A stretch of DNA of 64,000 bases from Elusimicrobiota bacterium. Lineage in GTDB: Bacteria > Elusimicrobiota > JBDRON01. The stretch spans positions 3,431 through 67,430 of the forward strand of contig JBDRON010000033.1 of the NCBI GenBank assembly GCA_043810025.1, written 5' to 3'. This document shows, one piece after another, positions 6,113 through 60,603 of the stretch (position 1 is the stretch's first letter; each line of letters begins with the position of its first letter). Both the position numbers and the translations under genes were made by a program. Below the pieces are notes generated by a model that saw nothing but the letters and a program-made list of their open reading frames with translations, was not told where the DNA came from and did no database searches.

Positions 6113-6136
6113 CAGTAATCCTCTTTATGCCGCTGT

Positions 6137-18937: not shown

Positions 18938-19039
18938 CTACAGGCGCATCCCAACTTTTTTATTTCAACAAGCCAGTTGTATTCTACTACAAAACTTCAA
19001 GTAAGGGAAGAGGAAAACCAAAAATCGCGGTTCTAGGGG

Positions 19040-29997: not shown

Positions 29998-32900
29998 CTA
30001 AGGTGTTATATCCAATACATATAGTTTGCCGTCGGAGGAACCGATGTACAAGCGGTTGAATTCGGTGTCGATTACCGGCATGGACCGCACGGTGGCGCCG
30101 GTGTTGACCGGCCAGCCGGAACGCAGACTGCCGTCGGCAACGGCCAGACAATAGATGTTGCCGTCATCGCTGCCGAAATAGACGTAGCCGTAACCGTCGT
30201 CCACCGGTGAAGATTTAATCGGACCGCCGGTTTGGCAGGACCAGGCCAATGTCCCGCTGGCCGCATCCACCTTGTAAAGTTTACCGTTATCGGCGCCAAA
30301 ATATAAATATTTTTTTCCGTCCGCTTCCGGGTTGGGTGTCAACCAGACTGAGGTATCGATTGGACTGCCGCAATCAAAATCCACCCATCCGGAGGGGGTA
30401 CCGGTCAAATTGGAGGATGTCCGGCAATACAGTTTGCCATCGCTGGAGGTAATATAAAGATTGTTGCTGGTCGCATGCACACCGCCGGAATCAATAAACG
30501 GAGCCGATCGGACCGGCCCGCCGGTATCAAACCAGGAAGTGGCTGTTCCGTCACCGGATTGCATTCGATAAATCCGGCCGCCATCCGAACCGATCCAACA
30601 GGCGTTTACCCCATCGGTATATTCATCTATGGAGGGAGAAGAACTTAACGCCCCGTTTAATGTGGGCGGCGCCCAGCCCAACACATTGTTTCCATCATTA
30701 ATATTTATTTTATAAACCTTGTTGTCGTTACAACCGATAAACATATTTTCGCCGACAATCTGAATCGCCGAATTCACCACCGCTCCCAGCTCCCGCGACC
30801 AGCCGCCGCCGTTAGTTGTCCCCGAAGTTATATTATCTTTCAGCTTGTAAATAAATCCGGCGTTATCGCTGAAATAAACAAACGTCCCCGCCGTTTCCAC
30901 GGTCGAATTAATCGCCGAAGTTATCGAACCGCTGGAAACAAACGGCTGGGTCCATTTGGCTGTGCCGTCGGGATTCATCGCCAGCAGTCTTTTATCCTCC
31001 GTCCCGGCATAAATAGCCACCTGATTATAAGCGCTGTCGTAACCTAACCCGATAGTCGAAGAAATCGCCGAACCGGTGCTTGTTCCGGCGCTGTACGGCC
31101 AGCTGGTATCCGGCGGGGGCAGCACCGGCACCGAAGCGGTAGTAGAGGATGAATTTACCGCAGCTGTGGGATTGATACTTTGGCTAACATCGCTGGCGCC
31201 ATCTCTTAAGACAAGATCAGCGCCGGCGGTAATCGAGGCGCGGAAGGAACAGGGGGTTTGATCGGTGGCATCAGCGGTCAGTTCCGCGATCACAAAATAG
31301 TCCCGGTAAGACGAAGGATTAACAATCGCCGCCACGCTGTCGGGAGAAACAACATTAAATGTTTGCGCGCCGGCGCCGTCCAAGGAAATACCGGCATTAG
31401 CCAAAACCGCTAAAGTGGAGACATCAATTGCATACTCATAAATACCGGCCGCCCCGTTCTCCTGATCATCGGCGCAGATTAATAGTTGAGCGAACAAGTT
31501 TTGCGCCTCCAGGGTAGTCAACGGCGCTAAATCGGGGTCGGTAAATCTAACCTTGATTTGCTCTATCTCCAAATTATTGTTGGCGCTGTTATTAGTCACC
31601 CTCAGACGCAGCATACTGCCCCGTTTACCGTTGTTCAACCGCGGCAAAGCGGTATTGACGGCGCTAACCGCCGGAATACTGCCGTCATAAGTAACATTGT
31701 TCAATACTATTGCCGGCGCCGGGCCGGAAGCGGTATCGCTGTTCAGATTCAGCCGATAAACCGCTCCATCAATTAAGCCGTAACCATCTTCGTCGAGGAT
31801 TAAAGCCCCCGCCACCGTAGTGGTTTGCGCGGTCAAATTATTTAAAGTGAAGCCTAAATTGGCCAACTTGAAGCGGTGCGGGGAATGCAGATCGGCGCTG
31901 CCGCCGGTGCGGGTAAAGGTGAGGTTATCGGTATAGCCGCCGCTGGAATCCTCACCTAAAGTCAGGGTCAGATTAAAGCGGCGGGGCAGGGCGGTCGAAT
32001 TTACCGGGTAGGTAAAAGTGTTGGCGGAGGCCGGCACGCCAACATTGTTTTTTGCTCCCTCGCCGGTTTGAGCAAAATTGGCGAAGTCGGCCGCATCCAA
32101 ATCGGTATCCGTCCCTTCGTTCGGGTAACGGCCAATGGAACCGCTAACCACCCCGCCCGGCGCCGTCCCCGGATAAGGAATTAAACCGGCTTGATAATCA
32201 TAATAATAATTGGCTCCGCTCTGCCAGCTGACCCGGTCCACCGCCTGACCGGAAGAATTTTCTAAAACCAGAAAATCGCTGTTACTGTCCAATCCGCCGG
32301 CCCCAAAACAGGCAGGATAACTATACTGATTGGCTGAATTATCCGTCGAGGAAAAGTTCAACCCGCTGAAACTATAAGTATCAATATTTAAGCTGAATTG
32401 GAACTGACGCCGGTAAGGGACGATGGTGTTTGCCCCCTGACTGTTCCGCAAAGTCCAATTAGTCAAAGCTTGCTTCGCCGCCGAATTATTATACAATTCG
32501 ATAAATTCCTGGCTTACTATCCCGTAACCGATCTCGTTAATTTTTATCGTCCCGCCGGCGACGTTGAGCAAATTTTTGGTAGTTGTCGGATCCTTTTCCC
32601 AATAGGCGCTGCCGTCATAAATCCGGCTGAAGGAAATACCGGCGCCGTTAATTGCCGGATACTGAACGATATCCACAAGACTGGCGATATTATCTTTCAG
32701 TTTCAAATGGTAACTTTGACCGTTGTCCAGATTGGTATTGGGAACAATCACCAGTAATCCCCCGCTATTAATCGTTTCAGCCACGCCCCCCGTCCAGACC
32801 ACGGATTCAGCGCCCGGCAAAGCGATACTGCCCTGATTATAGACCAACTGCCAGCCGTTTAAAGAAATCGGGTTGGGGGTATTATTATACAATTCAATCC

Positions 32901-35900
32901 AATCCTCCGCTCCCGTAGAACCGGAGAGATAAATTTCATTCAGATAAACATTTTCTTCCCGCGGCAAGGCGCCGGCGGTCCCATTGGAAATCGAAGAAAG
33001 ATTATTGGCTTTGTCATAAGTCTTCAGGGCAAAATAGTAAGTTTTGCCTAAAGTTAAGCCGGTGATTACCCGCGATTCCGTCGAGCCGGCCGAAACCGGC
33101 GCCCAGCTGTTTAACCAGACACCGGCCGTATCCCAGTTGCCGGCATTGATCACCCCGCCGGTAGAATAACGAACCTGATAACCGCCCAAAGTATTGTTGC
33201 CGCTGACACCGTCGTCGCCGGGCGCGGTCCAGGTCAGCACAATCTTGCCTCTCGTCTCTCCGGGATTAGCCGCCAAATCCGCCACCGCCGCCGGCGTTTG
33301 CGTATCTTTTTTCAGATAAAACACATCGTCAACAGTATTGAGATTGCCGGCATTATCGTAAACACGCACCGAAACATAATTAATTCCCTGCTGAGCAGTA
33401 ACAAAATCTATCGCCCAATCCGTCGTATAACCAGCCGCCCCAATATTGGCGGCGATATCCGTCCAATTTTTGATTACCGTGCCGCTGCGGGCGACGGCGC
33501 TGTTCAACGTATATTGAGCGGTAGCCAGCAGGGAAAGATTATCGGCAAAATCAACATTATAAACCGTCCCGCCGCTGTTCCGCCAGGTATCGTCGCCGGT
33601 CTGGTTATCAGTAACACCGGGCAGGCCGACATCCTTCTTTACATAAAAAACATCCGTCCTGTCCACACTGTTTCCCACCCCGTCGAACACCCGCACGGAA
33701 ACATAGTTTGCCCCTTGCTGTAAAGCATTCCAAGCCGTGGTAAGAAATGGCCAGTTAGTCGTATAACTATTCGCATTGATCCCGCTTACTTGGGTAGTCC
33801 AATCCTGCAATACCGTGCCGGCTTGATTGGGCTGGCTGGTAATCTTCGTCTGGAAATAGGAAATTTTGCTTCCGCCGCTATCCAGAAAATCCACGTCATA
33901 AGCGGCGACGTTACTGCACCGCCAGGTATCATCGCCGTACTGGTTATCACTGAGCGAAGGCGGTGAAATATCGTGACGATCTAAAGCAATCATCGCACAT
34001 TCGTAAAGCGCGGTCGAAGAATTGGTTTCATGGATTGTGCCGCCCGTCCAGGCTGAACCGCTCCAGTTGCGGGAACGAATATCGTTACCGGTATCGATCC
34101 CGACCACGGTCATTTTCACGGTGTTGGGATCAGGCAGAAGTCGCAGCCAACGGATGTTGCTGCTCCAGGTATAAGAATCGTTTAAAGGAGCCGACGGGGT
34201 TTGCTGCCAGGCTGTGCCGTTATAAAGGATATAACTAAAATAATTCGCTCCGCTTTTTACCCCGACAGCTAAACACCGGCCGCTGTCTTTTTCCCAAGCG
34301 ATATCCACTCCCCGTCCCGCTACCGAATCCATCGCCGTATTATCCGCTGGTAAAGCGCCCCAAGCCGATCCACTCCAAATGGAAACATTCCAGTGTAGTG
34401 AACCATCCAAACTCGCCATACCAATTTTATTCGAGGCCGGATCGGCTGCCAGTTTCAACCAGTTGGCAATAGCGGCAATCGCCGGACCGACCCCGCCCAC
34501 AGTTACCCAGCTGGTGGTAACCGAATTCCATATATCATAGGTAGTGCCGGTTCCCGACCCAAACAAAACCAGACAGCGGCCGCTCAGCGCCTCCCAAACC
34601 AGATCAAAACACTGTTTGGCGCTCACCGCCGCCGTCGCCGTATTCGTCCGCCGGTTAGCCGTATCCCAAGCGCTGCCCGTCCAACGGATAGAATGGATAT
34701 CGGAATTAGTATCGAGAGTAACCAGCAGCGCTTCATTTGCCGCCGGCCGGACGGCCAGCCGGACCCAGATGGGGATACCGGTCGTCAATACACTGAGACT
34801 AAGCGGCCCTTCCCAACTGCTTCCCGTCCAGCGCCGATAAACCGGATTGGCCGCATTATCGTTATAGACCACCAAACAATTGCCGCTCACTTCTTCATAA
34901 ACAATATCGAAACCCCGGTAAACCGCATTAGTCACCCCAATCGTTGTCGTCTGCCATTCCGTTGTCCAGGTCAGATTAGCTCCATTCCAGCGCTGGATCG
35001 TCAGTTTACCGTCCGAACTTAACACCCCCAGCATCTTTTCGTTGCGCAGTAACGGACAGGCTTTAACTACCACCCAGTTAATCGTCGCCGAGGCGTTCTG
35101 TCCGCTTTGTTCCCCGCCCCAGGAAGCGCCGTCCCAGAGATTATAACGCGGCGCAATTTGGGTACCCTGACCAAAAACCAGCATCCCGCTCGCCGCTCCC
35201 GGGGGCGCGGCTACCGCGCCGGTACTGTTGGAAATAGACGAATAACTAGGCAGATCATCGTAAGCTTTCAGGGCAAAATAATAAGTGGTAGTCGCCGTCA
35301 GATTAGCCAAAACTTTTTCTTCCAGACTACTCACCGGCAGCGGTTCCCAGGACTGGGTATAAGCAGCGGCCGTATTCCAATTGCCGGCGGTAACCGCCGC
35401 CGTGGTTGAATATTTTAACACATAGCCGCCGGAAGGAGGAGCAGCCAAATTGCCGGTGGCTTCGTCTTCTCCCGGCGCCGTCCAGGTTAGTTTAATCTGT
35501 CCGACATAATCGCCGGTCATCGCCGCCAGATCGGTAATCTGACGCGGCGGGGTAATCGCCGCCCAGGCCGAATTGCCGGTTAAATTGGAGATCGTCCCCT
35601 GATTGCCGGCTTTATCCACCGCCTTAAGCGCCAGATAATAAGTTGCTCCCTCCATCAAGCCGGTTAAAGTATAACTTTCGCTTCCTCCGGAAGATTTTGG
35701 GCTGAGCGTCTGGTAATAGGTGGCCGCAATCGTAAAATCAGCCTCGCCGGTAAAATTACTGCCGGTTTTATATTTCAGCAGATAACTAACGGACTGGCCG
35801 GCGCCAGCGTCATCGCCGGACGCCGTCCAGGTTAAATTGATCTTGCCGGCAAAATTGCCGGCCGCGGCCGCCAAATTGGCGATTGCCGACGGAGCCACCG

Positions 35901-50900: not shown

Positions 50901-53900
50901 TGTTCCAGATACCGCCGGTTAAAGCCCAATCATTAGAGTAAGCGCCGGCGTTAATCCCGCTGATCACTTCCGTCCAGTCCTGCACCACCTGACCACTGCC
51001 CGCTGTTCCCGTCGCCGCCCGCACCTCAAAATAATTAAGCAGAGAACCGCCGCTATCATTGAAGTTGATATTGTATGTTCCGTCGTTGCTAGTGCGCCAA
51101 ACCGCATCGCCGCCCTGCTGATCGTCAATCGTCGGCGCGGTAGTATCTTTTTTTACATAGAATACATCGTCCAGTTCCGCAGTATTCCCGGCCCGATCGT
51201 CAGCGCGCACTGAAATATAGCCGGTCACCCCTTCGCTGAGCGCAGCAAAATCAATCCCCCAGTTGCCGGTATAACCGCTGCTGTTCACCGAGGCGGCAAG
51301 ATCTGTCCAATCCTTGACCAGGCTTCCCGTTTTACCGGTTTGAGTGTAGATGGTGTATTGCAGGTTGTTCAGTAAAGATAACCCGTCGGCAAAATCAATA
51401 TCGTAAAGAGCGGCGGTTTTCCGCCAGGTATCGTCGCCAGACTGGTTGTCGGTAATTACCGGCGGGGAAGTGTCTTTTTGCACATAAAAGACATCGGTCA
51501 CCGAGGTGCTGCTGCCGGCAGTATCGAAAACCTTCACGGAAATATAATTGGTTCCCGGCTGGAGCAAATCCCATGTAGTGGACAACAGCGGCCAATTATC
51601 GGTGTAGTGACCGACGTTGATGTTGGAAACAACCGTCGTCCAATCCTCTAAAACCGTCCCCCCCTGGTTAGGCAGAGTGTTCACCTTGGTTTGAAAATAA
51701 TTGAGCAAAGCCGTATCGCTATTGGAAGAAAAGTCAACATTATAGACGCCGTTATTGATTGTTCGCCAAGTATTGTCACCGCTCTGGTTGTCGGTAACCA
51801 CCGGCAGGCCGGCGGCTTTGATCAGATAAAAGACATCTTCCAGTGTTTGGGAATTGTTCGCGTTATCAAAAACTTTTACGGAAACATAATTTTGACCTTG
51901 CTGACAAGCGCCGAAATCAATCCCCCAATTGTCGGTGTAACTGGCCGCATTGATACTGCCGGCTAGATCAGTCCAATTTTTTAACCGCGTCCCACCCTGT
52001 CCAACGTCCGTGCATATCGTATATTGAATATTTTTCAATAACGCCCCGCCGGTATCGGCAAAATCAACATTAAAGATGTTACCGGGATTGGTATTGTATT
52101 CCGTATCGTCACCGCTTTGCAGGTCGGTAATCGTCGGTGTAGTAGTATCCATTTTTACATAAAAGAGGTCATTGAGGCTGGAAATATTGCCGGCGTTGTC
52201 GGCGGTGCGCAGACTGATATAATTTGTCGCTGCCTCCCGCAAAACCGCAAAATCAATTGACCAATCCGTGGTGTAACCGGAATTATTTAAACCGCTAAAA
52301 ATATTTGTCCAGTCTTTCAGTTGATCGCCGGTTTGCTGGCTGCCGGAGTAAATCGTATATTGCGCATAATCCAGCAGGGAGTTGCTATCGTTGAAATCCA
52401 GATTATAAACAGCGCCGGCCGCCTTTTGCCAAGTGTCGTCGCCGCTTTGATTATCCACAATCCCCGGCAAGATGGAATCTTTTTTCAGATAGAAAACATC
52501 GGTGGTTGTACTCTGATTGCCTAAATTGTCCGTGGCCCGCGCGGAGATATAGTTTATTCCCTGCTGACTGGAAACAAAATCGATCGTCCAGGGCGTATTA
52601 TAAAGCGCGGTACCGGCCGAGGTAAAAATATTCGTCCAATCCTTGCGCAGACTACCCGTTTGACCGGGGCCGGTCCAGATGGAATACTGGGCGGAAGACA
52701 ACAGGGAGTGGGCATCCTGAAAACTGACATTGTAAGCGGTCCCGCCGAAACGGCGCCAACTGTCATCACCGGTCTGACTGTCAATGATGGTTGGCACAGC
52801 GGTATCTTTTTGGATATAAAAAGCATCGGTTAGGGAAGCGCTGTTCTGGGCATGATCGAACACCCGCACGGAAGCATAGTTCCTGCCCGCGGCTAAACTC
52901 GTCCATAAATCAGTGGGCAGTGGCCAGTCGGCAGTATAAGAATTAGCAGCAACATCTCCCAGCACCGTCGTCCAATCCGTAATTAAAGCGCCGGTTTGGC
53001 CGGGACCGGTGGTGATTTTTAACTGAAAATAATCCAACTGCGCACTGCCGGTATCGTTAAAATCAATATTGTAAGCGCCGTCGTTTTGTTTTCGCCAGGC
53101 ATCGTCACCGGTTTGATTGTCGGTGATCGTCGGCGCGGCGGTATATTTTTTCAGATAAAAAACATCGTTAAGAGTGGAAAGATTATTGCCGTTGTCGGTT
53201 ACTTTTACCGAAACATAATTGAGGCCTCCGGCGCAGGCGCTGAAATCAATCGGCCAATCCGCCGCGTATTCGTTATTATTCAGATTAGTAAAAATGTCCG
53301 TCCAATTTTTTAAGGTTGTGCCGCCCTGCGCCGGCAGACTGTTAACTAAATATTGCGCCGAAATCAACAGTGAGCCGCCGCCATCTTGAAAATCCACATT
53401 ATAAACCGCACCTTCGCTGTTCCGCCAAGTATCGTCACCCAACTGGTTGTCGCTAATCTGCGGGACGGTAACATCTTTCAAAACATAAAACACATCGTTG
53501 ACGGTGGCGGTATTGCCTGCCCAGTCGAAAGACCGCACGGAAACATAATTGGTTGTCCCTTCGGCGCAGGCGGCAAAATTTATCGGCCAGGGCACCGAAT
53601 AACTGTCGGCATTAATGGCGATGGCGATATCGGTCCAACCCTGCAATTGACTGCCGGTTTGATTTACATCGCTAAAAATAGCGTATTGCGCGGCGGATAA
53701 TTGGGAAGCGCCGGAAACATCGTTGAAACTTACCGTATAAGTTTTACCGGCCGCTTTCTGCCAGACCGTATCGCCGTTTTGGTTATCGGCGATGGTCGGG
53801 GTGGTGGTGTCCTTCAACAGATAAAACAGATCAGCGAGAGTAATGCTGGAACCGGCCCAGTCAAAAACACGGACGGAAACATAGTTGTAACCATCACTGC

Positions 53901-56900
53901 AGGCGGTGAAGTCAACTGCCCAATCCGTCGTATAACTATTGCTGTTAATATTGGCGGCGATATCCGTCCAATCTTTTAAAACCGCTCCGGCCTGCGCCGG
54001 CAATTTGGTAATTTTATACTGGGCGTTGTTGAGCAAGGCTCCGCCGCTGTCCTGAAAATTAAGATCATAAACTGTTCCGCCGGTTTTGCGCCAAGTGTTA
54101 TCGCCGGATTGATTATCGGTGATCGTCGGCACGGTGGTATCTTTCAGCAGATAAAAAACATCGTTGTTTTCCGCACTGATGTTGCCGGCCTGGTCGGCCG
54201 CCCGCGCCGAAACATAACCGGTTGCTCCCTCCCGCAAAACATTCCAACCAGCCGCCGGTAACGGCCAATTGTTGGTATAACTGCTATTATTTATACCGCT
54301 GACCACCGTCGTCCAATTTTGCAAAACTTCTCCCGACTGCGCCGGACCGGTAGTAATTTTGATCTGGAAATAGTCGAGGTTAGACCCGCCGCTGTCGGCA
54401 AAATCAATGTTGTAAGCGCCGTCGTTAATCCGCCGCCAGGTCGTATCGCCGGATTGCAGGTCATTGACCGTCGGAGAAGTAGTATCCTTCTTTACATAAA
54501 AGACATCGTTGACGGCGGCGCTGGAACCGGCCCAATCAAAAACACGGACCGAAACATAATTGTACCCTTCCTGACAGGCGGTGAAATCCACACCCCAGTC
54601 GGCGGTGTAGTCATTGCTGTTAATATTAGCGACAATATCCGTCCAATCTTTATAAATTGCCCCCCCCTGATTGGACAACTGAGTGATTTTATACTGGGCA
54701 TAGTTGAGCAATGAATCGCCGCTATCCAGGAAATTTACATCGTAAACATCCCCACCGGTTTTATGCCAGACATCATCGCCGCTCTGGTTGCCGGCGATGG
54801 CCGGCGCCGAGGTGTCTTTTAAAACATAAAAAACATCGTTGGTTTCGGAGCTGAGATTGCCGGCCGCATCGAGAACACGCACAGAAACATAATTGGTTAC
54901 CCCTTCTCTCAAGGTGTCCCAGCCGGAACTAGGCAGAGACCAGTTAGCAGTATAAACACTGTTGTTAATCCCGCTGATCACCGTCGTCCAGTTTTGCAAG
55001 ACTTCGCCCGATTGACCAACACCGGTAGTGATTTTGATTTGAAAATAATCCAGGTTGGAGCCGCCGGTATCGGCAAAATCAATGTTGTAAGCGCCGTCGT
55101 TGATCCGCCGCCAGGTTGTGTCACCGGATTGAAGATCAGTGATGGTTGGAACAGTAGTATCTTTCAGCACATAGTAGCAATCGTTAACCGTGGTCGTGTT
55201 GCCGGCCAGATCGTAAACTTCCACGGAAACATAGTTGGTTGCCCCTTCCAGACAAGCCTCAAAATCTACTGACCAATCGGTCGTAAAACTTGTCCCGCCG
55301 ACCGTAGGAATCGCCGTCCAATCCTTGCGCAATGCGCCGGTTCGGTTGAGATCGGTATAAATCGTATATTTAGCCCCGGCTAACCGCGAAGCCGAATCGA
55401 GAAAATTTACATTGTAAACGGCGCCGGCGCTTTTTTGCCAGACATCGTCGCCGGACTGCAGGTCTTCCACCGTCGGGGTTGTGGTGTCTTTAAGCAGATA
55501 GAAACAATCGTTGAGGGTAGTATTATTTCCCACTTGATCAAAAACCCTCACACTGACATAGTTGGTTACGCTCTCCTGTAAAGCGGTCCAACTACCGGCA
55601 ATTAAAGACCAGTCTGTCGTATAAGTATTGCCGGACAAACCGCCGGCTTGAGTAGTCCAATCTTGCACCACTATGCCGGACTGGGCAGCGCCGGTCGTAA
55701 TTTTCGTTTGAAAATAACTGAGACCGCTGCCGCCGCTGTCCTGAAAGTCAATGTTGTAGACGCCGCTGTTGGTTTTCCGCCAAACCGTATCACCGGCCTG
55801 CAGATCGGAGATCGCCGGAGTAACAGTATCTATCAACACGGAAAATGTTGATGTCCAGTTACAATAATTATTCGCTTGGTCATAAGTTCTTACCCGCCAA
55901 TAATAAAGATTAGTATTCAAACCGGTCGAAGCGGCCTGCGAGAGGGCCGGACTGGAACTATAGGTGATAGTCGTAAAATCGGCAGCAGTAGCCACTTGTA
56001 ATTCATAGCGGTCGAGCGTTGACCCGCCGCTGTCGGTGGAGTCCGACCAGTCGAAACTGACGGTTTGATTGCTCTGTTTGGCGCCATTGGTGGGGGTCAG
56101 CAAAGTGGGAACAGTCGGCGAGGAAAGATCACAGCCAAAATCCCCTTCCGTTTCCAGATTCCCGCCGAAGGATGCCCAGCCGCTTGTTCCCCCCGTACCG
56201 GAAAGACGGGCCTGCCAGTGATAAGTCGTTCCCGAAGTTAGGCCGGAAATACTCACACTCCCGGCCGCCGCCGGACTGGTAGAATAATAAACCACCGCTG
56301 AGCCGCTATCAGTCGGGGTATTGGTAAAACCGGTTCCCACCGCTCTCACTTCGATTTGCGGCGTTAAGGTATCGGACAGGCGCGGGCTGGTCATCGGCAA
56401 TTTTAAAACGAGATTGTTTTGGTTCGTCCAACTGCCGGTGGAAATAATGGTTGCGCCATCGGATTTATATTGTGTTAGATTCGTCGGGGTATTAGGGATG
56501 GCGATACATTCATAAACAACGGAACCGAGACCGGTAAAGTTGGCCTGATTGGCGGCGATACTGTAATTAGCGGTTACCTGCGAACTGGCTTCAGTAATCT
56601 GACCGACGTTTTGATAAAAGCGGCTCGTCCCGAAAGCCTCGCTGGTCGTGCGGGGATTAACAATTTGGGACCCGGAACCGTTAAAATCAACAGAGGTGGT
56701 AGTATTTTGAGTGATCGTGTTTTTATTATTGGATTGTGTATAATTCATCTTCAACCAGGCCATCCGCAAACTTTTACTGCCCGGAGCAGGAAACCAAAGC
56801 GGCATCGTAGGAGAAAAACCGGCCGCGATACCCGAATCGCTTTGTCCGGCAAAAGTTTGATAATAATTTGTATAGTCCGCCTCATTGGTATAATCATAAG

Positions 56901-58215
56901 TAACCACCAGTTCTACACCGCAAGCGCCTAAAGCATCGGGAGCGGGCGGCGCGGCATAGCTGACGGCAATTGTTGAACCGTTTACCCAGTAACCGGCTTG
57001 CAAGGTCAAATCATGCAATAACGACCAGCCGGAAATTCCGATGGATTCCGCGCGCAGACGATACAAGGTTTGCGTCAAGGAAATTCCGTTGACACTGGCC
57101 TCAACCGGCAGATCTTGACCGGTAGTCGAGTTATAGGAACCAATCATCCGGGCATAAAGACGACGGATGGTAATTCCCGCCTCATTTAAATAAAGCGGCA
57201 GACTAAAACCGGTATCCACCGCCGCATCGGAGGCCTGACCCAAAAAATAGCTGATCGTTTTCGTATGGGTGGAAGCGCTGACCGAATATTCGTAAGTGAC
57301 CAGACATTCTCCGCCAAGCAAATTGATTGTTCCGGCGGCGATAATCATGTTAAAAGTTTGATCGGTATTCACCGCAAAACCGGCTAAACCGGCGTTTCCC
57401 TGATGATCAATAAACAGGAACTCGTAGGAATCAATCAAAGAACCGTCCAAGGTCATCGTCTGACTGTTCGCCGTATTATTGACATTGACCGTAATCGTCG
57501 TATCCGTAGTGGCCGCGCCCGACTGCCGGAAACCGCGCGCCTCAAACCACTGCTGACGAACGGTAAATTTCGGATCACCCAACAACGCTTCGGCAATTTC
57601 CGCCTTATAACCAAACCCATAGGTGCCGGCCGGCGACTCGCTATTTTTTGAAGCCAAACCGTTAGCTTTGTCCCAGTAAAGCGGGAAACGAACCGTTTTA
57701 ATCTGGATGGCCGAGGTATCGTCATATTCGTAGGTAATATATAATTTTAGGGTATGGGTGTTGGAAGTCGGCCCGACAATTTTTGCGCCGGCGGAAAACA
57801 GGGAGGATGTGGTCGTATTCAGGTCGAAAACACTGCCCAAGACGGAAGTCACATCCGCCCGGGCAACAATTTTTCGGGATTCACCGGTAGTATCATCGAA
57901 TTGACCGGTGATCGGGTCGCGCGCCGTGGAAGCAGCTGCCCCTTGATCAAAAAGCAAATCAACATTCGTCGTATCCGCCGAGGAACACCCCAAGGCCTCC
58001 AATTCCAAAATCGCGCTGCGGATCACCCGGACAGCGCCCGTCTCCGGCAGATGGACCGTAAGGGAAGCCGGCAGCCAGTTAGTATTGGAAGCCAAATCCG
58101 CAACGTTATAATACGACCCAAAACTGTACTCGACAGTTTTGATCCGTGTCGCCGCAGTCAGAGATAAATTCCATCCCCAAACCAGCGCCCCGATAAACAG
58201 AAATATTTTTCTCAT
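29998..58215 (-). CDS. Giant secreted repeat protein (9,405 aa): signal peptide, about 58 tandem ~106-aa Ig-like repeats, duplicated FN3 pairs + Trp-rich propeller-like blocks, two lamin-tail domains, C-terminal PQQ-like beta-propeller
   Basis: A single uninterrupted 28,218-nt ORF. The N-terminal signal peptide is MRKIFLFIGALVWGWNLSLTAATR. The repeat unit is conserved in DNQ[ST]GDDTWR..YN[IV]DF.D...[DN]WT...NYVS[VA]R..D.AGN...DVFY[VL]KKDT. The lamin-tail motifs are LNEIYLSG...EDWIELYN and INEIGYG..QEFIELYN. The C-terminal blades have the form YFG.DDG.LY..D...G. Confidence 0.85.
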   Translation of the reverse strand: MRKIFLFIGALVWGWNLSLTAATRIKTVEYSFGSYYNVADLASNTNWLPASLTVHLPETGAVRVIRSAILELEALGCSSADTTNVDLLFDQGAAASTARDPITGQFDDTTGESRKIVARADVTSVLGSVFDLNTTTSSLFSAGAKIVGPTSNTHTLKLYITYEYDDTSAIQIKTVRFPLYWDKANGLASKNSESPAGTYGFGYKAEIAEALLGDPKFTVRQQWFEARGFRQSGAATTDTTITVNVNNTANSQTMTLDGSLIDSYEFLFIDHQGNAGLAGFAVNTDQTFNMIIAAGTINLLGGECLVTYEYSVSASTHTKTISYFLGQASDAAVDTGFSLPLYLNEAGITIRRLYARMIGSYNSTTGQDLPVEASVNGISLTQTLYRLRAESIGISGWSLLHDLTLQAGYWVNGSTIAVSYAAPPAPDALGACGVELVVTYDYTNEADYTNYYQTFAGQSDSGIAAGFSPTMPLWFPAPGSKSLRMAWLKMNYTQSNNKNTITQNTTTSVDFNGSGSQIVNPRTTSEAFGTSRFYQNVGQITEASSQVTANYSIAANQANFTGLGSVVYECIAIPNTPTNLTQYKSDGATIISTGSWTNQNNLVLKLPMTSPRLSDTLTPQIEVRAVGTGFTNTPTDSGSAVVYYSTSPAAAGSVSISGLTSGTTYHWQARLSGTGGTSGWASFGGNLETEGDFGCDLSSPTVPTLLTPTNGAKQSNQTVSFDWSDSTDSGGSTLDRYELQVATAADFTTITYSSSPALSQAASTGLNTNLYYWRVRTYDQANNYCNWTSTFSVLIDTVTPAISDLQAGDTVWRKTNSGVYNIDFQDSGGSGLSYFQTKITTGAAQSGIVVQDWTTQAGGLSGNTYTTDWSLIAGSWTALQESVTNYVSVRVFDQVGNNTTLNDCFYLLKDTTTPTVEDLQSGDDVWQKSAGAVYNVNFLDSASRLAGAKYTIYTDLNRTGALRKDWTAIPTVGGTSFTTDWSVDFEACLEGATNYVSVEVYDLAGNTTTVNDCYYVLKDTTVPTITDLQSGDTTWRRINDGAYNIDFADTGGSNLDYFQIKITTGVGQSGEVLQNWTTVISGINNSVYTANWSLPSSGWDTLREGVTNYVSVRVLDAAGNLSSETNDVFYVLKDTSAPAIAGNQSGDDVWHKTGGDVYDVNFLDSGDSLLNYAQYKITQLSNQGGAIYKDWTDIVANINSNDYTADWGVDFTACQEGYNYVSVRVFDWAGSSAAVNDVFYVKKDTTSPTVNDLQSGDTTWRRINDGAYNIDFADSGGSNLDYFQIKITTGPAQSGEVLQNWTTVVSGINNSSYTNNWPLPAAGWNVLREGATGYVSARAADQAGNISAENNDVFYLLKDTTVPTITDNQSGDNTWRKTGGTVYDLNFQDSGGALLNNAQYKITKLPAQAGAVLKDWTDIAANINSNSYTTDWAVDFTACSDGYNYVSVRVFDWAGSSITLADLFYLLKDTTTPTIADNQNGDTVWQKAAGKTYTVSFNDVSGASQLSAAQYAIFSDVNQTGSQLQGWTDIAIAINADSYSVPWPINFAACAEGTTNYVSVRSFDWAGNTATVNDVFYVLKDVTVPQISDNQLGDDTWRNSEGAVYNVDFQDGGGSLLISAQYLVNSLPAQGGTTLKNWTDIFTNLNNNEYAADWPIDFSACAGGLNYVSVKVTDNGNNLSTLNDVFYLKKYTAAPTITDNQTGDDAWRKQNDGAYNIDFNDTGSAQLDYFQLKITTGPGQTGALITDWTTVLGDVAANSYTADWPLPTDLWTSLAAGRNYASVRVFDHAQNSASLTDAFYIQKDTAVPTIIDSQTGDDSWRRFGGTAYNVSFQDAHSLLSSAQYSIWTGPGQTGSLRKDWTNIFTSAGTALYNTPWTIDFVSSQQGINYISARATDNLGNQSTTTDVFYLKKDSILPGIVDNQSGDDTWQKAAGAVYNLDFNDSNSLLDYAQYTIYSGSQQTGDQLKDWTNIFSGLNNSGYTTDWSIDFAVLREAATNYISLRTADNAGNISSLNDLFYVKMDTTTPTITDLQSGDDTEYNTNPGNIFNVDFADTGGALLKNIQYTICTDVGQGGTRLKNWTDLAGSINAASYTDNWGIDFGACQQGQNYVSVKVFDNANNSQTLEDVFYLIKAAGLPVVTDNQSGDNTWRTINNGVYNVDFSSNSDTALLNYFQTKVNTLPNQGGTVLEDWTTVVSNINVGHYTDNWPLLSTTWDLLQPGTNYISVKVFDTAGSSTSVTDVFYVQKDTSPPVITDNQSGDDTWRKTAALYDIDFADGLSLLNNLQYTIYTQTGKTGSLVKDWTDLAASVNSSGYTGNWGIDFAALSEGVTGYISVRADDRAGNTAELDDVFYVKKDTTAPTIDDQQGGDAVWRTSNDGTYNINFNDSGGSLLNYFEVRAATGTAGSGQVVQDWTEVISGINAGAYSNDWALTGGIWNNLVSWTTNYISVRVWDHAGSSQTANDVFYLWKDTAPPTMTDNQSGDDTWRKVSGTVYNIDFGDVGSKLAGAEYTVYRGLNRSGALVKDWTAIGSVSGNSSYTADWALDFDTCLSSYNYVSARVWDLAGSTTTVEDVFYVKKDTSGPVTVDNQSGDDTWRKAAGTAYNVDFQDNLSLLTTVQYAIWSGPNRTGTEQKTWTNIAVGIVASDYTANWGIDFSACQEGTTNYVSVRSYDGIGNFTITEDVFYVKKDLTAPAITDNQLGDDTWRNSAGTNYNIDFQDSGGALLDYAQYCLWSQPTLGGTAVKTWTTLAANIDANSYTTDWSLDFAGCLQGTNYVSVRVYDRAGNSAGLTDVFYVKKDTSAPTLTNNQSGDDTWRKDNTAAYNLDFADSGTSQLSHFQVKVTSGPAQSGVLLNDWTTIGENIASDSYTADWSLSSAVWANLMTGKNYVSVRVFDNVGNSGSLTDAFYVLKDTTPPAIIDQQTGDDAWRKTGGSTYNLDFADNDAKLSYFQTKISSGAAGSGTLLQDWTTVVSGIGAVSYTSDWALVSGSWELLGEGTNYVSVRVFDQAGNTTALTDGFYVRKDTTPPSGSALAPAYSNTTNFNLLYAAGDSGGSQLKNVKLYYTTQTGVPYTWGQYGTTFTASPIAFTAGAENIYGFKIIAEDNAGNTDEAGPDSSAIPESSTTVDLSSPTVADNQTGDDAWRSAGGTTYNIDFQDSGASLLSSAQYTVYSAAGLSGSQLKGWTNIATGINADSYTADWAIDFTAGQEGYNYVSVRVYDQAGNLTTINDVFYLKKDTIIPSVTDNQTGDDSWRAAAGTTYNVDFADNGSLLSNVQYTVRSAAGLGGVVYQAWTDIAANINAGSYPTDWPVDFAACREGTNYVSVRAYDAAGVSATVADVFYVLKDTTTPSITDNQTGDDTWRRAAGTTYNIDFADTLALLATAQYTIWTAAGQTGTQLKTWTDIAVNINVASFAADWPLDFSAAQQGANYVSARVYDRAGNQQTANDLFYLKKDILAPSIIDNQLGDDTWRSSAGNTYNVTLNDSGGSLLSVFQYTINTAANRSGTILKDWTNIAGDINNSVYSALWGVDFNSCLQGVNYVSARAWDVAGSTTTTADVFYVKKDTSGPVIIDNQTGDDIWRKAGGTVYNIDFNDPEVWLDSAEYTINSAAGQGGTVLKTWTLIAGDINSADYTADWGVDFAAGQEGTNYVSVRAFDKLANSTTTNDIFYFLKDTVGPTAINNLSASTALEGEISLSWTATGDNGASGTAASYVVKYATFQFTDQNSFEQAAAFAQSWTPLPPTNGETQTISGLTADTTYYLAIEVVDKAGNRSSLSNTSGNWCKSGADATLPGTINDLAAVTGDFAGQVNLSWTAPGDNGLVGDLQAPPNGRYALKYSAASSISSEVAWTTAQTFAQNWAPMTAGVTENRTVTGLTNGTLYYFAVRAYDEANNLSNLSNSPSASAGLPGMAEGMLVYGSASSANPQYRLWLGSNWDDYQYSAQAAASVVRWTRLEACPTVRNEKMLGALSYDGTAAPDGDLYLQRWDGVNSNWVDLGRMNTTLGTIYSAYRGFDLAYEQLSGRCLAAYFNGTGAQITYRVWSSTAAAWAAGPTNLSLPGLTGAVYWLKLTPRPADNGIMLTAMDVNLNIYSIYWNGSAWVNGRTNASAGAANAAYQCFDAAWENTAGRCLALWGTGSRITTYDIYSPTAGSWPIIAQSGPNINAKNNAGWIKMAADPTSSRIGFTSMDADSDWNVSIWDGSDWGALPLEDASAIGPTGRTTDIAWGKDNGLCLVAAVDAAASQFSYLGWSSVLGWHNPVTLVAAVPNTAPKDTLVWTGNLRWVTLNPDPNTNKIFLSGISISGDLRSRIWTGSSWSGGALHSSAVSDYSYECAAVVSSKHDAAPPTLADNQTGDDTWRKSNTVNYNIDAEDSGGSQLLKIQTKIYTQPNNVGQLLEDWTTQVNNIGANSYTADWPLIANTWNALVSGNNYVSVRAQDNAGNFSSALIDAFYVRKDTIPAIVADLQSGDTTWQNTAGKVYNLDFQDLHSTLNGAKYTIYTEVNRSGQLRKDWTTIPAVSGSAFTADWPVDFSACLEGAANYVSVEAYDLAGNTATVNDCFYVLKDTSPPTITALQSGDTTWQNTAGKTYNGDFYDTGGSRLNYVQYRICTGPSQTGQLRKDWTTIAANINVNSYTADWPIDFSACLEGATNYVSARAYDWAGSSVSLNDCFYLLKDVHEPTIIDNQTGDLNWRTAGGTTYNVDFQDSGGSLLNYAQYKICSAAGGGGTTLVDWINIAANISTTTYTTDWAVDFSSCQAGANYVSVRAYDWAGSSVSLTDAFYIRKDTDVPSIIDNQTGDDTWRTAAGTVYNLDFQDSGSLLNNLQYTIYSGANRSGSQLKDWTDIAANVSASAYTTDWPVDFSACREGATNYVSARADDYAGLSAIAEDVFYVKKDTTVPTVTANQTGDDTWRTAAGTTYNIDFQDSGSLLDYAQYSLWTQPNQTGNNLKTWTNIAADINNSNYTADWSIDFNVGQQGTNYVSVRLADKAGQLTGQNDLFYVLKDTSVPTISDLQSGDDIWRTAAGSAYNVDFNDLGSLLSSVQYTIYSAAGLTGTQLKTWTDIAANINAGSYTTDWPVDFTACQQGTSYISVRADDNAGQSTQLNDCFYVKKDTSSPTVVDNQTGDDSWRTTAGTTYDIDFQDSGSLLSLAQYTIYSAAGRTGTQLKTWTDIAAGINNSAYTANWTVDFNSCQQGYNYVSVRVYDQANNFTIADDVFYVKKTTSPPVIIDNQSGDDTWRKSGSTVYNLDFQAQGSALLDYAQYTVWDAPAQTGNQLKTWTNIATAINASVYTTDWPLDFAALSEGVTNYVSARVFDQAGISAAGNDLFYVKKDVSLPGLTDNQLGDDTWRSQAGSVYDIDFQDSGGSLLNNLQYAIYSQAGKTGTLYQDWTNLAGAVNASSYSTNWPVDFTACREGLNYVSVRVDDWAGNSSELADCFHIYKDTSAPTIDDQQGGDDLWRITNNGIYDINFNDTGGSQLSYFQVRAATGTAGSGQVVQDWATLAGNIGAASYSTDWALSSGIWDNLVSWTTNYISIRIYDRAGNSQTLNDCFYVLKDTAAPTISDNQSGDDNWRAAGGTVYNIDFGDVGSRLAGAEYTINSGVNRTGTVLKDWTTAAAVAGNSSFTADWAIDFGACSAGPNYVSARVWDTAGSTTTANDLFYVKKDTFGPTISDYQTGDDTWRKVSGTTYNVDFLDSLSLLATAQYAIWTGLNRSGTELKSWTDIASGINNSGYTANWGVDFDACQQGTNYVSARVYDNLSNLTTGDDCFYVKKDTTSPTITDNQSGDDTLRSAPGTVYNVDFQDSGGSLLSYAQYTIWAGPGRTVGEIKTWTNIVTAINSNSYTNDWEIDFNGCQQGYNYITVRVFDGAGGSVEGVDVFYVRKAAGAPSIVDNQLGDDTWRKTNVAAYDIDFFSNSGANLSYFLSKVCSAAGQSGTVIEDWTTVVSAIGSTQYSANWSLLNAAFDKLLPGRNYVSLRILDEAGNTTTVSDVFYVQKDTVTPTITDNQSGDDTWQTAAGKTYDVDFADNHSLLNYAQYTIWGDVNRSGSLLKDWTNIAGAINAAGYTANWPVDFAGLPETATGYVSVRVFDNLLNCTTSNDVFYILKDTTTPTITDNQTGDDAWRTAAGTTYNVDFADLRSLLTTAQYTIYSVAGLGGSKLKDWTAIASSINSASYTADWPVDFPACGQGANYVSVKVFDRAGNSAQLNDCFYVKKDTAVPAITDNQTGDDAWRTAGGTTYDVDFTDLGSLLTTAQYTIYSLAGQTGVQLKDWTDIAVSIGTTSYTANWPIDFTAGQQGNNFVSARVYDGVGNSAEAIDVFYVKKDTSGPTVIDNQTGDDTWRNSGGTVYNVDFQDNGSLLNYLQYSIYSGPNRTGTLLKTWTNIAAGLNASNYTADWAIDFSACAAATTNYVSVQAYDNLNNSTIAEDVFYVLKDLTAPGISDNQLGDNSWRNSGGTTYDVDFQDSGGSFLNNAQYTIWSAAGQTGTQRKTWTNIAGSINSNSYTTNWPIDFDSAVDGENYISVRVDDRAGNSAGLDDVFYVKKDTTSPVLTDNQSGDDSWRSNNTSVYNVDFQDSGGSLLSSFQTKLTTGTAQSGTVLEDWTTQISGINAAGYTTDWPLSAASWEALLTGGTSYVSVRVFDGAGNAATVNDVFYVKKDTAAPTVTDNQSGDDIWRKTAGTVYNLDFQAGASALLSSAQYTIYSAANRAGTQIKDWTDIAAGINVGAYTADWPVDFDACREGTNYVSVRVYTYSGASGSADDVFYVKKDTTSPTITDSQSGDAAWRNNSGTVYNVDFADLSSQLTTAQYLIYDSAGQTGNKLKDWTDIAGGINAAGYTTNWPIDFTACNEGTNYVSVRAFDLAGNSGSANDVFSVLKDTTVPVIQDNQSGDTVWRRSNNAVYNLDFFDSGGSLVSYFQTKLTTGPAQSGTALQDWTTQVSVINGASYTTDWSLLDPSWQALRSGPTNYLAVRLYDQAGNSAVLNDPFYIWKDTITPTITDNQPGDDVWRKAVGTVYNIDFADSGGSLLNKAEYIIYRAAGQSGQLLKDWTGIAGVSGTSYTADWTLDFDSCQEGENYVSVRSSDTAGSLTTLTDAFYVRKDTTAPTIQDLQAGDTSWRRLNDGLYNVDFADLGGSLISYFQTKLTSAPAQSGTVRQDWTTQVSAINNSGYSADWPLVNSSWLALISGSTNYAALRVYDLAGNSSSLNDPFYILKDTITPTIDDQQSGDDAWRRAAGTAYNVNFNDSGGSLLEKAEYTIWSAAGQTGSLLKDWTVIANNINNSAYTADWTIDFAGANQGTNYVSARTNDLAGSTTSQNDVFYLKKDTVGPTITDAQTGDDTWRAAAGTIYNIDFADYGIGLSTVQYRIWSAPGQSGSLVKDWTDIAAGIGAAAYTTDWPVDFAGCLGGTTNYVTVRAYDVLASSTTGVDVFYVLKDTVAPSAIANLAAAAGNFAGKINLTWTASGDDAGAGQSVSYLLKYKTGSNFTGEADFTIAATYYQTLSPKSSGGSESYTLTGLMEGATYYLALKAVDKAGNQGTISNLTGNSAWAAITPPRQITDLAAMTGDYVGQIKLTWTAPGEDEATGNLAAPPSGGYVLKYSTTAAVTAGNWNTAAAYTQSWEPLPVSSLEEKVLANLTATTTYYFALKAYDDLPSYSSISNSTGAVAAPPGAASGMLVFGQGTQIAPRYNLWDGASWGGEQSGQNASATINWVVVKACPLLRNEKMLGVLSSDGKLTIQRWNGANLTWTTEWQTTTIGVTNAVYRGFDIVYEEVSGNCLVVYNDNAANPVYRRWTGSSWEGPLSLSVLTTGIPIWVRLAVRPAANEALLVTLDTNSDIHSIRWTGSAWDTANRRTNTATAAVSAKQCFDLVWEALSGRCLVLFGSGTGTTYDIWNSVTTSWVTVGGVGPAIAAIANWLKLAADPASNKIGMASLDGSLHWNVSIWSGSAWGALPADNTAMDSVAGRGVDIAWEKDSGRCLAVGVKSGANYFSYILYNGTAWQQTPSAPLNDSYTWSSNIRWLRLLPDPNTVKMTVVGIDTGNDIRSRNWSGSAWTGGTIHETNSSTALYECAMIALDRHDISPPSLSDNQYGDDTWRCSNVAAYDVDFLDSGGSKISYFQTKITSQPNQAGTVLQDWTTQVSGINANSYTTNWPFLTTAWNALQQGANYVSVRVFDGVGNSVDRTDVFYVKKDVGLPGVTDNQTGDDTWRNSGGTVYNVDFADNLSLLATAQYTLNSAVARSGTVIKNWTDIAANIGAAGYTTDWAIDFVTAQQGINYVSVRVYDNAGNLNTVDDVFYLKKDTQTPAAVADLAANPGETRGKIVLTWTAPGDDGVSGNNTLGGYQVRYSTGGVINAGNWDTAGVWLNSWAPVSAGSTESRVITGLTLGKTYYFALKTYDKANNLSSISNGTAGALPREENVYLNEIYLSGSTGAEDWIELYNNTPNPISLNGWQLVYNQGSIALPGAESVVWTGGVAETINSGGLLVIVPNTNLDNGQSYHLKLKDNIASLVDIVQYPAINGAGISFSRIYDGSAYWEKDPTTTKNLLNVAGGTIKINEIGYGIVSQEFIELYNNSAAKQALTNWTLRNSQGANTIVPYRRQFQFSLNIDTYSFSGLNFSSTDNSANQYSYPACFGAGGLDSNSDFLVLENSSGQAVDRVSWQSGANYYYDYQAGLIPYPGTAPGGVVSGSIGRYPNEGTDTDLDAADFANFAQTGEGAKNNVGVPASANTFTYPVNSTALPRRFNLTLTLGEDSSGGYTDNLTFTRTGGSADLHSPHRFKLANLGFTLNNLTAQTTTVAGALILDEDGYGLIDGAVYRLNLNSDTASGPAPAIVLNNVTYDGSIPAVSAVNTALPRLNNGKRGSMLRLRVTNNSANNNLEIEQIKVRFTDPDLAPLTTLEAQNLFAQLLICADDQENGAAGIYEYAIDVSTLAVLANAGISLDGAGAQTFNVVSPDSVAAIVNPSSYRDYFVIAELTADATDQTPCSFRASITAGADLVLRDGASDVSQSINPTAAVNSSSTTASVPVLPPPDTSWPYSAGTSTGSAISSTIGLGYDSAYNQVAIYAGTEDKRLLAMNPDGTAKWTQPFVSSGSITSAINSTVETAGTFVYFSDNAGFIYKLKDNITSGTTNGGGWSRELGAVVNSAIQIVGENMFIGCNDNKVYKININDGNNVLGWAPPTLNGALSSSPSIDEYTDGVNACWIGSDGGRIYRMQSGDGTATSWFDTGGPVRSAPFIDSGGVHATSNNLYITSSDGKLYCRTSSNLTGTPSGWVDFDCGSPIDTSVWLTPNPEADGKKYLYFGADNGKLYKVDAASGTLAWSCQTGGPIKSSPVDDGYGYVYFGSDDGNIYCLAVADGSLRSGWPVNTGATVRSMPVIDTEFNRLYIGSSDGKLYVLDITP
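35910..45190 (-). repeat. Coding tandem repeat array 2 of giant gene (about 29 copies of ~318 bp; approximate bounds)
   Basis: Same unit as array 1. It is bounded by the two FN3-pair + Trp-rich block units, at about 45190..47190 and about 33975..35910. Confidence 0.8.
47190..55832 (-). repeat. Coding tandem repeat array 1 of giant gene (about 27 copies of ~318 bp; approximate bounds)
   Basis: The KDT...DNQ.GDD boundaries recur every ~106 aa. Copies are divergent at DNA level. This is protein-coding, not CRISPR. Confidence 0.8.
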
Positions 58216-59313: not shown

Positions 59314-59541
59314 TATTTGCGGAGCGATTTCATCGGTATTAGACTTGTTTTTTTTGCGTTAAATTGAATTTTCCAGTTTGCCGTTTGGGGGGAAGAAAAG
59401 TTTTTGTAGCGTTGAGATAAAAGGCGATAGAATTTTAGTTCGGGGGTAGAAAAAACCGGATTTATCTCAGCAATATTCAATGAAAGTTTGTAGTCCATTT
59501 TACTACTGCCGATTATAGCAAATTTTTTCAAAAAACAAAAT

Positions 59542-60527: not shown

Positions 60528-60603
60528 CGGCCTATGCTCGGATAAAGCAGAATGGAAATTTCCGGCTATGTATACGCACCCGCAATTTGAAGGAGCTCAT
60601 AGA

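Follow-up and report, generated by a model that had tools for sequence, protein, structure and literature searches.

A 9,405-residue modular protein of an Elusimicrobiota bacterium and its family with constant ends and a variable stalk

A stretch of 64,000 nucleotides (nt) from an Elusimicrobiota bacterium (contig JBDRON010000033.1, positions 3,431 to 67,430; hereafter the window, which means the whole 64-kb stretch) contains a single gene for a protein of 9,405 amino acids (aa). We found that this giant is a complete, unusually long member of a widespread uncharacterised family and no unique oddity. It is a leader-bearing, acidic, all-beta modular protein whose ends are constant and whose stalk varies in length. 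No curated model covers two of its domain families, a four-module head and a Trp-rich beta-propeller predicted to be eight-bladed. The open reading frame (ORF; 29998..58215 (-)) begins with ATG and comprises 9,405 codons with one terminal stop and none internal; its open frame is 28,215 nt long, and the ORF makes up 44% of the window. An initial annotation made from the letters had proposed a single 28.2-kb ORF for a modular giant of this length, and the intact frame from ATG to one stop confirms it. The predicted protein has a mass of 1,010 kDa and a pI of 4.23 (954 Asp and Glu vs. 509 Lys and Arg), and no enzymatic domain was detected in it by Pfam and NCBIfam scans. Its parts are given below from the N-terminus onward; the domain coordinates first proposed agreed to about 30 nt with those from the motif scan, alignment, hidden Markov model (HMM) and Pfam.

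58141..58215 (-), aa 1-25: putative Sec-type signal peptide, read from the sequence (MRK, hydrophobic stretch, TAA)
56503..58140 (-), about aa 26-571: head core, four tandem homologous beta-sandwich modules of ~130-148 aa each
55831..56502 (-), aa 572-795: two FN3/Ig-like modules
49144..55830 (-), aa 796-3024: array 1a, repeat units R01-R20 (20 units; motif scan, alignment, HMM)
48835..49143 (-), aa 3025-3127: FN3/Ig-like insert of 103 aa (jackhmmer from the module at aa 697-795)
47185..48834 (-), aa 3128-3677: array 1b, units R21-R25 (5 units; motif scan, alignment, HMM)
46501..47184 (-), aa 3678-3905: FN3 pair 1 (Pfam fn3 45.2 bits, two stretches, and Pur_ac_phosph_N)
45190..46500 (-), aa 3906-4342: Trp-rich beta-propeller 1, eight-bladed in the model
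35899..45189 (-), aa 4343-7439: array 2, units R26-R53 (28 units; motif scan, alignment, HMM)
35191..35898 (-), aa 7440-7675: FN3 pair 2 (Pfam fn3; collinear alignment with FN3 pair 1)
33973..35190 (-), aa 7676-8081: Trp-rich beta-propeller 2 (43% segment identity to copy 1; propeller HMM)
33298..33972 (-), aa 8082-8306: units R54-R55 (motif scan, alignment, HMM)
32962..33297 (-), aa 8307-8418: single FN3 (Pfam fn3 26.3 bits vs. cutoff 25)
32041..32961 (-), aa 8419-8725: two lamin-tail domains (LTDs; PF00932 83.8 bits vs. 34.3, two stretches)
31096..32040 (-), aa 8726-9040: tail, unique beta-rich region, also kept in loci L036 and L038
29998..31095 (-), aa 9041-9405: tail, PQQ/BamB-like propeller and stop, conserved in protein P0024 and in loci L036 and L038

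The family of giants and its short members

Matches to the head were found in 51 proteins, in 41 loci of GTDB representative genomes and in 44 loci of metagenome contigs. The genome scan used a profile from an eight-sequence alignment, the 21-sequence head set being too divergent. Nearly all of the genome loci belong to Elusimicrobiota (Elusimicrobia and Endomicrobia) and to metagenome-assembled genomes (MAGs) of Candidatus Firestonebacteria, the exceptions being single MAGs labelled Ignavibacteria and Deltaproteobacteria; one carrier, L020, is an Elusimicrobium sp. MAG. The best genome match was to a Firestonebacteria head (49%). Across GTDB representatives and JGI metagenomes identity did not exceed 49% for full-length heads and 52% for partial ones, and no contig identical or nearly identical to the window was found in either collection. 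The initial annotation had described an N-terminus of ~790 aa as unique; its extent holds (aa 1-795), while the region itself is a conserved family head. A KTV..F-type strand opens and a TYEY-type strand closes each of the four head modules, and pairwise comparison of the modules by hhalign gave probabilities of 96-99% (E 4e-9 to 2e-20). The AlphaFold2 model of the head was confident (pLDDT 80, pTM 0.80). Ahead of the head, the N-terminus reads MRKIFLFIGALVWGWNLSLTAA and then TR, which has the look of a Sec signal and lies immediately before the first conserved strand; this strand, RIKTVEY, is conserved family-wide and begins right after the putative signal peptide. The model places a helix at aa 2-15 with low pLDDT. 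Secretion by means of a signal peptide had been claimed before, and our own reading of the letters by eye likewise gives a Sec-like leader.

In most loci the head ORF outruns the fetched sequence. About 20 of these ORFs are still open at least ~3,950 aa downstream of the head, a figure that is the limit of the 10-kb flank, and most other head loci end at contig ends. Contigs on which the ORF extends past this flank include JAKLIF010000006.1, JAQTOU010000004.1, CALDDQ010000002.1, MGVC01000008.1 and JAJZPL010000001.1. The relatives carry 16-24 copies of the 110-aa repeat beginning at about aa 790-800, a gap at about aa 3,020-3,130 that matches the insert of the giant in size and in distance from the head, and a Trp propeller at about aa 3,350-3,700 where the sequence extends so far. 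This order of head, ~20 repeats, insert, ~5 repeats, two FN3 modules and propeller recurs in loci with a GC content of 0.29-0.64, which argues that the first ~4,300 aa of the architecture, as judged by sequence comparison, are old and shared. The GC content of the giant gene itself is 0.52 vs. 0.40-0.45 in the flanks, with the surplus mostly at codon position 2, and an equal offset was seen in the giant genes of relatives whatever their genomic GC. The surplus is thus attributed to amino-acid composition, and recent horizontal transfer was rejected as its main cause.

The two-propeller layout is not special to the window gene. The repeat, two Trp propellers and the tail are also present in P0085 (6,457 aa), P0076 (5,973 aa) and P0107 (5,077 aa). 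P0076 (MEK6647536.1, Candidatus Firestonebacteria, N-terminally truncated) is named "PQQ-binding-like beta-propeller repeat protein" at NCBI, and P0107 (MEF3280437.1, Elusimicrobiota, with the LTD region too) is named "lamin tail domain-containing protein"; both names derive from a terminal domain alone. Of the complete members recovered, none is longer than the window protein. Like the window protein, whose 28 units lie at 35899-45189, P0076 carries 28 units from one propeller to the other (aa 909-4000) and a further two behind the second. Comparison of the window protein with P0076 gave no one-to-one orthology of units within the arrays; positional orthology was found only at the array edges, namely at position 2, at the unit after the insert and at the unit after each propeller. 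The shared count of 28 is either a coincidence or a result of selection on stalk length.

At the other end of the size range, P0022-24 (1,099-1,135 aa) have only the head and, after it, a PQQ-type propeller. The giant from about aa 8855 to its C-terminus aligns with residues 568-1133 of P0024 (33% identity, E=5e-63). Complete ORFs of intermediate length were also recovered (1,765, 1,884, 3,057 and 3,740 aa), and in an unchanged gene neighbourhood family members measure from ~1,100 aa, with head and tail only, to over 6,000 aa. Head and tail are constant and the middle varies from zero to ~8,000 aa, as would be expected if it served as a stalk or extender. Since short and long relatives occupy one neighbourhood, the ends would carry the core function and the middle would provide reach.

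In a survey of proteins longer than 5,000 aa, Elusimicrobiota were reported to be enriched in them, and none of these long proteins had a COG function (PMC11573180). The family of the giant appears to be a main family behind this enrichment. A limited literature search gave no description of the family or of its gene cluster, and the family is not described in a preprint on giant genes of Omnitrophota.

Repeats, propellers and segmental duplication

We counted 55 repeat units (25+28+2), and their positions agreed between the motif scan (Q.GD), a MAFFT alignment and an independent HMM. The layout first reported, ~27+29+2 repeats of ~106 aa, was right; its counts and its period were slightly off, the period being 109-115 aa with two length classes. 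Residues Q11, G13, D14, W58, W74 and D108 are invariant, and the unit boundary carries an Asp-rich motif (DT..PTI.DNQ.GDD.W). This motif and the acidity of the protein suggest that calcium may stiffen the linkers in the style of RTX adhesins. Identity among units at the protein level averaged 50% (range 34-79%), and blocks of units have been duplicated locally (R03-R04 vs. R05-R06 at 79% and 70%; R14-R17 vs. R35-R38 at 61-70%). A Cys at alignment column 86 (..DF.AC.EG..) occurs in 27 of the 55 units, and a second Cys column in 9.

Whether the repeat is a named domain had been raised by the initial annotation, and the answer is divided: it has FN3/Ig relatives, and no single unit exceeded the curated cutoff of Big_13, Big_3_3, Big_3_2, Big_6, NF047446 or Ca_tandemer. 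Weak matches were found to Big_13 (8/55 units, best E 0.015), Big_3_3 (2/55, best E 2.8e-4), Big_3_2 and Big_6, to Ca_tandemer NF033510 (9/55, best E 0.014), and to the OmpL47-type NF047446 (18/55, best E 4.1e-6), the last only over profile positions 34-63 of 68; the score of 61 bits for NF047446 is a sum across many units of a scanned 4,800-aa fragment. A search of the PDB with the 55-unit profile gave nothing below E=0.89. By contrast with these single-unit scans, when hhalign was used to compare this profile with 135 FN3/Ig_Rha78A_N-like modules from proteins of the family, cleared of any overlap with repeat units, the probability was 93.9% (E=1.6e-7, 72 columns). This profile-to-profile link argues that the ~110-aa repeat is a divergent beta-sandwich of the FN3/Ig superfamily.

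The Trp-rich block was modelled with AlphaFold2 from a 15-sequence alignment as an all-beta structure (pLDDT 85, pTM 0.90). The confident model has radial four-stranded blades and structural matches among known propellers, and we take the block to be an eight-bladed beta-propeller on this basis. Its W.GS.W motifs are spaced by ~55 aa. Five blades had been counted earlier, and the model replaces that number with eight. The observation that the block matches no nameable domain was upheld, as no Pfam or NCBIfam model hit it, and a PDB sequence search gave no related chain. Among known systems it was set beside PLL/BP39L-type bacterial propeller lectins and PilY1-type pilus-tip propellers. The propellers of PLL lectins have seven blades. 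The Trp propeller differs from PLL/BP39L lectins in its eight modelled blades, shares only 11-12% identity with them and has scores against PLL-type lectins no better than those against WD40 proteins, so that it was not placed in the PLL family.

Giant proteins that are otherwise unrelated commonly contain the Trp propeller, for which Pfam has no model. A word-indexed search with 14 matches had given the impression of a rare domain, which was overturned by exhaustive HMMER searches (4,159 cluster representatives at E<=1e-3; 1,692 at E<=1e-30). Some of these proteins are free-standing propellers (~440-560 aa) and others are very large and multidomain, with up to 12 matched stretches in one protein of 7,926 aa. 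In P0070, P0071, P0097, P0113 and P0127 (6,500-7,900 aa) we observed 2-12 Trp-propeller stretches and no match to the head, repeat or tail. The free-standing propeller P0009 (511 aa) closes a minor-pilin operon with GspH/N_methyl genes (L046 5505-9536), which suggests that the family also serves as a pilus-tip module. Several other free-standing members have an N-terminal hydrophobic segment, pseudopilin-like by eye and without a model hit.

The remaining domains called initially, namely the FN3 modules, the two LTDs and the C-terminal PQQ-like propeller, all scored above Pfam gathering thresholds. The single FN3 shares 49% identity with the second module of FN3 pair 2. The tail propeller matched PQQ_2 (PF13360) with 60.1 bits vs. 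a cutoff of 27.6, which says nothing on binding of pyrroloquinoline quinone (PQQ), and Beta-prop_ACSF4 (PF13570) with 131.8 bits, slightly under the cutoff of 133. The beta-rich region before it (aa 8726-9040) had no Pfam match, and a word-indexed search for aa 8726-9405 gave only four proteins with generic PQQ propellers, none of them a giant homologue.

The two copies of the FN3 pair with its Trp-rich block are collinear and 43% identical over 652 aa (E=7e-168), which substantiates the higher-order duplication proposed initially. Identity between the two propellers of one protein was 44% in the window protein, 54% in P0076 and 69% in P0085, and identity between propellers of different proteins was 39-50%. 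These values, from sequence comparison, would fit either repeated duplication or partial homogenisation. At the DNA level, off-diagonal high-scoring segment pairs of at least 200 nt in the ORF showed at most 72% identity, and the longest exact direct repeat across the 28 kb was 42 nt. Thus, collapse or mis-joining of near-identical copies is unlikely. The divergence noted in the initial annotation stands and argues against collapse. Repeat arrays often break assemblies, and most relatives do end at contig ends, but the frame stays open for 28,215 nt, independent assemblies show the same order of parts, and P0076 has the same 28 units plus two, so that a collapsed, expanded or chimeric array is an extremely improbable source of this ORF.

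The conserved gene neighbourhood

The genes on both sides of the giant recur around the head genes of relatives. The neighbours in the window are, from the upstream side of the giant:

58699..59313 (-): ScmC-like (HprK-related) gene (TIGR04249 32.6 bits, cutoff 125)
58295..58732 (-): small gene, weakly Peptidase_S24-like (Peptidase_S24 E=0.007, below cutoff)
26364..29858 (-): partner gene, 1,164 aa, with a PQQ/BamB-like propeller, FN3 and a type IX secretion system (T9SS) type-A sorting domain
25024..26151 (-): ATPase_2/AAA_22-type NTPase; a similar ATPase is in the L002 cluster
22955..24562 (-): PorV/PorQ-family outer-membrane barrel, 535 aa (NF033709 178 bits vs. 90; Pfam UPF0164)
22001..22936 (-): NTP_transf_5 nucleotidyltransferase, syntenic in L001, L002 and L036
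20378..22051 (+): ABC-2 permease and ABC ATPase pair, beside the cluster in L001, L002, L011, L013, L017 and L039

Locus L002, which encodes the short member P0024, has the order ScmC, PqqD, radical SAM/SPASM protein, 115-aa gene, P0024 and a PQQ-propeller protein with Por_Secre_tail, followed by a UPF0164/PorV-like gene, NTP_transf_5, the ABC-2 pair, Poly_export and GNVR. The small gene of the window and the 115-aa gene that precedes P0024 share 36% identity (E=3e-20), and by tblastn the small gene lies upstream of the head gene in ~30 loci. The ScmC-like gene is syntenic in ~25 loci by the same method, and its L002 counterpart matches Pfam ScmC. The PorV-like gene is syntenic in L002, L013 and L045. 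In the public gene call of P0085 the small protein and the giant form one ORF. The motif GGCMRPLL of the small protein in the window corresponds to GGSMRPLL in this fused homologue, a Cys thus taking the place of the S24/S26 nucleophile Ser.

The partner shares 36-38% identity with the gene that immediately follows P0024, and L036, L038 and L040 each have a match to the N-terminal propeller of the partner immediately downstream. The sorting domain of the partner was recognised by both PF18962 (29.3 bits vs. 27) and TIGR04183 (30.1 vs. 23), and the giant has neither of these domains nor a type-B C-terminal domain (CTD) at E<=0.01 in Pfam and NCBIfam. The two databases therefore agree with the initial assignment of a sorting domain to the 1164-aa neighbour and none to the giant. 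It had also been asked whether relatives fuse the giant to the sorting-domain gene. By tblastn the tail is followed by the partner in L002, L036 and L038, and the two are separate genes in all three (a 4-nt overlap in L002; ~120-145 nt apart in L036 and L038). Separate genes are thus the conserved arrangement, and the stop at 29998 does not mark a broken fusion. The 139-nt gap between the two genes in the window had no terminator-like or promoter-like site.

No PqqD or radical SAM gene lies between the ScmC-like gene and the giant in the window. The cluster was not assigned to the SynChlorMet cassettes, given the ScmC score of 32.6 bits vs. 125 and the missing adjacent PqqD and radical SAM genes; that cassette has two radical SAM/SPASM proteins, whereas L002 has ScmC-PqqD-radical SAM/SPASM with one radical SAM gene. 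A 74-aa ORF at 59307-59531 was considered as the missing N-terminus of ScmC and rejected, as no similarity was found.

Several other features of the window were recorded. A radical SAM/SPASM gene (13976-14977 (-)) lies 6 kb past the cluster, and its best NCBIfam matches are of the AhbD/NirJ type, below cutoffs. Just upstream of the cluster, past the ScmC-like gene, a 153-aa ORF (59929-60390 (-)) joins pieces of glutamate synthase (GATase_2 positions 113-181 and Glu_syn_central 3-49) and looks like pseudogene debris; its 106-aa neighbour (59542-59862 (-)) had no Pfam match. Polysaccharide export genes occupy 975-7318 (-), including a Polysacc_synt_3 flippase, Wzy_C, GNVR/Wzz with ATPase, and Poly_export with SLBB. 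A gene of baeRF family 3/7 (release-factor-like; 19040-20200 (-)) adjoins the only tRNA of the window, tRNA-Arg(TCG) at 18871-18947 (-). Genes of mobile-element or toxin-antitoxin type are found in the flanks (a YhaV-type toxin at 9894-10376 (+) and an ORF6N-domain gene at 60568-61116 (+)).

Proposed function and known surface proteins

Based on the FN3 modules, LTDs, Ig-like repeats, propellers and acidity, and on the lack of an enzymatic domain in the scans above, we consider that the giant is probably a Sec-exported, acidic cell-surface fibre of about 1 MDa, of the giant-adhesin kind. It would be exported through its N-terminal Sec leader. The conserved head, with its four beta-sandwich modules, would bind targets, and the Trp propellers perhaps would too; placed within the stalk, they probably add binding sites. 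The stalk of ~8,000 aa comprises the 55 FN3/Ig-like units, further FN3 modules and LTDs, and the two Trp propellers. At a length of ~4 nm per Ig/FN3-like domain, its ~65 such domains could hold the head as far as ~0.25 um away from the cell. As the giant itself lacks a sorting or anchor signal, we tentatively propose that its tail, the unique beta-rich region and the PQQ/BamB-like propeller, docks to the partner with the T9SS-type sorting domain at the outer membrane; this step is doubtful in itself, and the PorV/PorQ-family barrel encoded nearby may take part in it.

Several observations weigh against a fibre held at the outer membrane. Apart from its Sec leader, the giant showed no signal that could be recognised as one for secretion, sorting or anchoring. 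The only T9SS component in the window is the PorV/PorQ-family gene, at 178 bits vs. 90 for NF033709, and neither a translocon nor a PorU-type sortase was seen in these 64 kb. To our knowledge, T9SS is not established for this phylum, and neither for T9SS in Elusimicrobia nor for the SynChlorMet cassette did a literature search yield anything useful. Moreover, weaker matches to the head occur in one Actinomycetota MAG and in archaeal MAGs, in proteins that lack the partner genes, which argues that the head can do without an outer membrane. Placing the head rather than the tail outward is a guess.

These points bear on another explanation, in which the giant is a matrix or envelope scaffold, released or loosely bound, that organises exopolysaccharide or an S-layer-like coat, its propellers and LTDs binding glycans of the cell itself. 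The missing anchor signal and the heads in archaea and Actinomycetota are compatible with this, as are the polysaccharide export genes at 975-7318 and the Poly_export and GNVR pair that also flanks the L002 cluster. However, the exopolysaccharide genes of the window are 13 kb away with housekeeping genes between, and the sorting-domain partner and PorV-like barrel favour a defined attachment at the outer membrane. We regard such a scaffold as unlikely.

Maturation of the kind known for ribosomally synthesised and post-translationally modified peptides (RiPPs) offers a further interpretation. Here the giant, or its small upstream neighbour, would be the substrate of the ScmC/HprK-like, PqqD, radical SAM/SPASM, S24-like peptidase, NTP_transf_5 and ABC-2 exporter genes, and modification or processing would be central; this is compatible with a surface fibre. 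ScmC, PqqD, radical SAM/SPASM and the small gene stand immediately upstream of the head gene in L002, the ScmC and small genes hold their position in ~25-30 loci, and NTP_transf_5 and ABC-2 recur. Yet the window lacks PqqD and radical SAM at that position, its ScmC scored 32.6 vs. 125 bits, no precursor-like peptide was identified, and the S24 match of the small protein is weak (E=0.007) with Cys in place of the nucleophile Ser. A central role for such processing seems improbable. Another proposal is a scaffold for nutrient capture or polysaccharide degradation, like a cellulosome scaffoldin or a T9SS-secreted glycan binder: the many beta-sandwich and propeller modules are of often carbohydrate-binding kinds, and single units matched Glucodextran_B, CBM64 and CelD_N weakly, but these matches are far under cutoffs and neither giant nor cluster has a catalytic, cohesin or dockerin domain, which makes this role very improbable.

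Returning to the surface fibre, we also put forward a broader and rather speculative idea, that the cluster encodes a system, so far undescribed, by which Elusimicrobiota and Firestonebacteria assemble surface fibres, with a giant anchored in trans, RiPP-type processing and a stalk of selected length. In such a system the tail propeller may pair with the propeller partner bearing the sorting domain and with the PorV/PorQ-like barrel, and the ScmC/HprK-like kinase, PqqD, radical SAM/SPASM protein, S24-like peptidase, NTP_transf_5 and ABC-2 exporter may modify or process the giant. The 28 units between propellers in two lineages without positional orthology would hint at selection on stalk length. 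In any case, an anonymous hypothetical giant becomes a testable system with a head, a variable stalk, a tail and fixed partner genes. It raises the questions of what the head and the Trp propellers target, how a 1-MDa protein without a sorting signal is placed at the outer membrane, and why RiPP-like maturation genes accompany it.

Among known giant surface proteins, the Bacteroidota protein SprB with its downstream PorP/SprF-type partner resembles the giant in being repetitive and encoded beside outer-membrane accessory genes, and the window cluster shares a PorV/PorQ-family barrel and a type-A sorting domain with the T9SS surface proteins of Bacteroidota. In contrast to SprB-type proteins, the sorting domain is on the 1,164-aa neighbour and no type-B CTD was found; unlike the Bacteroidota systems, the carriers are Elusimicrobiota/Firestonebacteria-like. 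The giant itself was not classed as T9SS cargo, since its C-terminus is a PQQ-like propeller and no sorting domain. Nor is it an RTX adhesin secreted by a type I secretion system (T1SS): those adhesins bear a C-terminal T1SS signal, whereas the giant has an N-terminal Sec-like leader, and it has no RTX/HemolysinCabind match and no T1SS genes nearby, the ABC-2 pair being the only ABC transporter. Its head and embedded propellers, families without models, also set it apart from them. The likeness to SiiE, LapA and MpIBP/RTX adhesins, as far as established knowledge and the abstracts on these proteins describe them, lies in the megadalton size, the tens of ~100-aa beta-sandwich extender units, the acidity, the ligand-binding modules kept apart from the stalk and the Asp-rich unit boundaries (DT..PTI.DNQ.GDD). 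By this comparison, the giant may work like the giant Ig-repeat adhesins SiiE, LapA, MpIBP, Bap and SprB.

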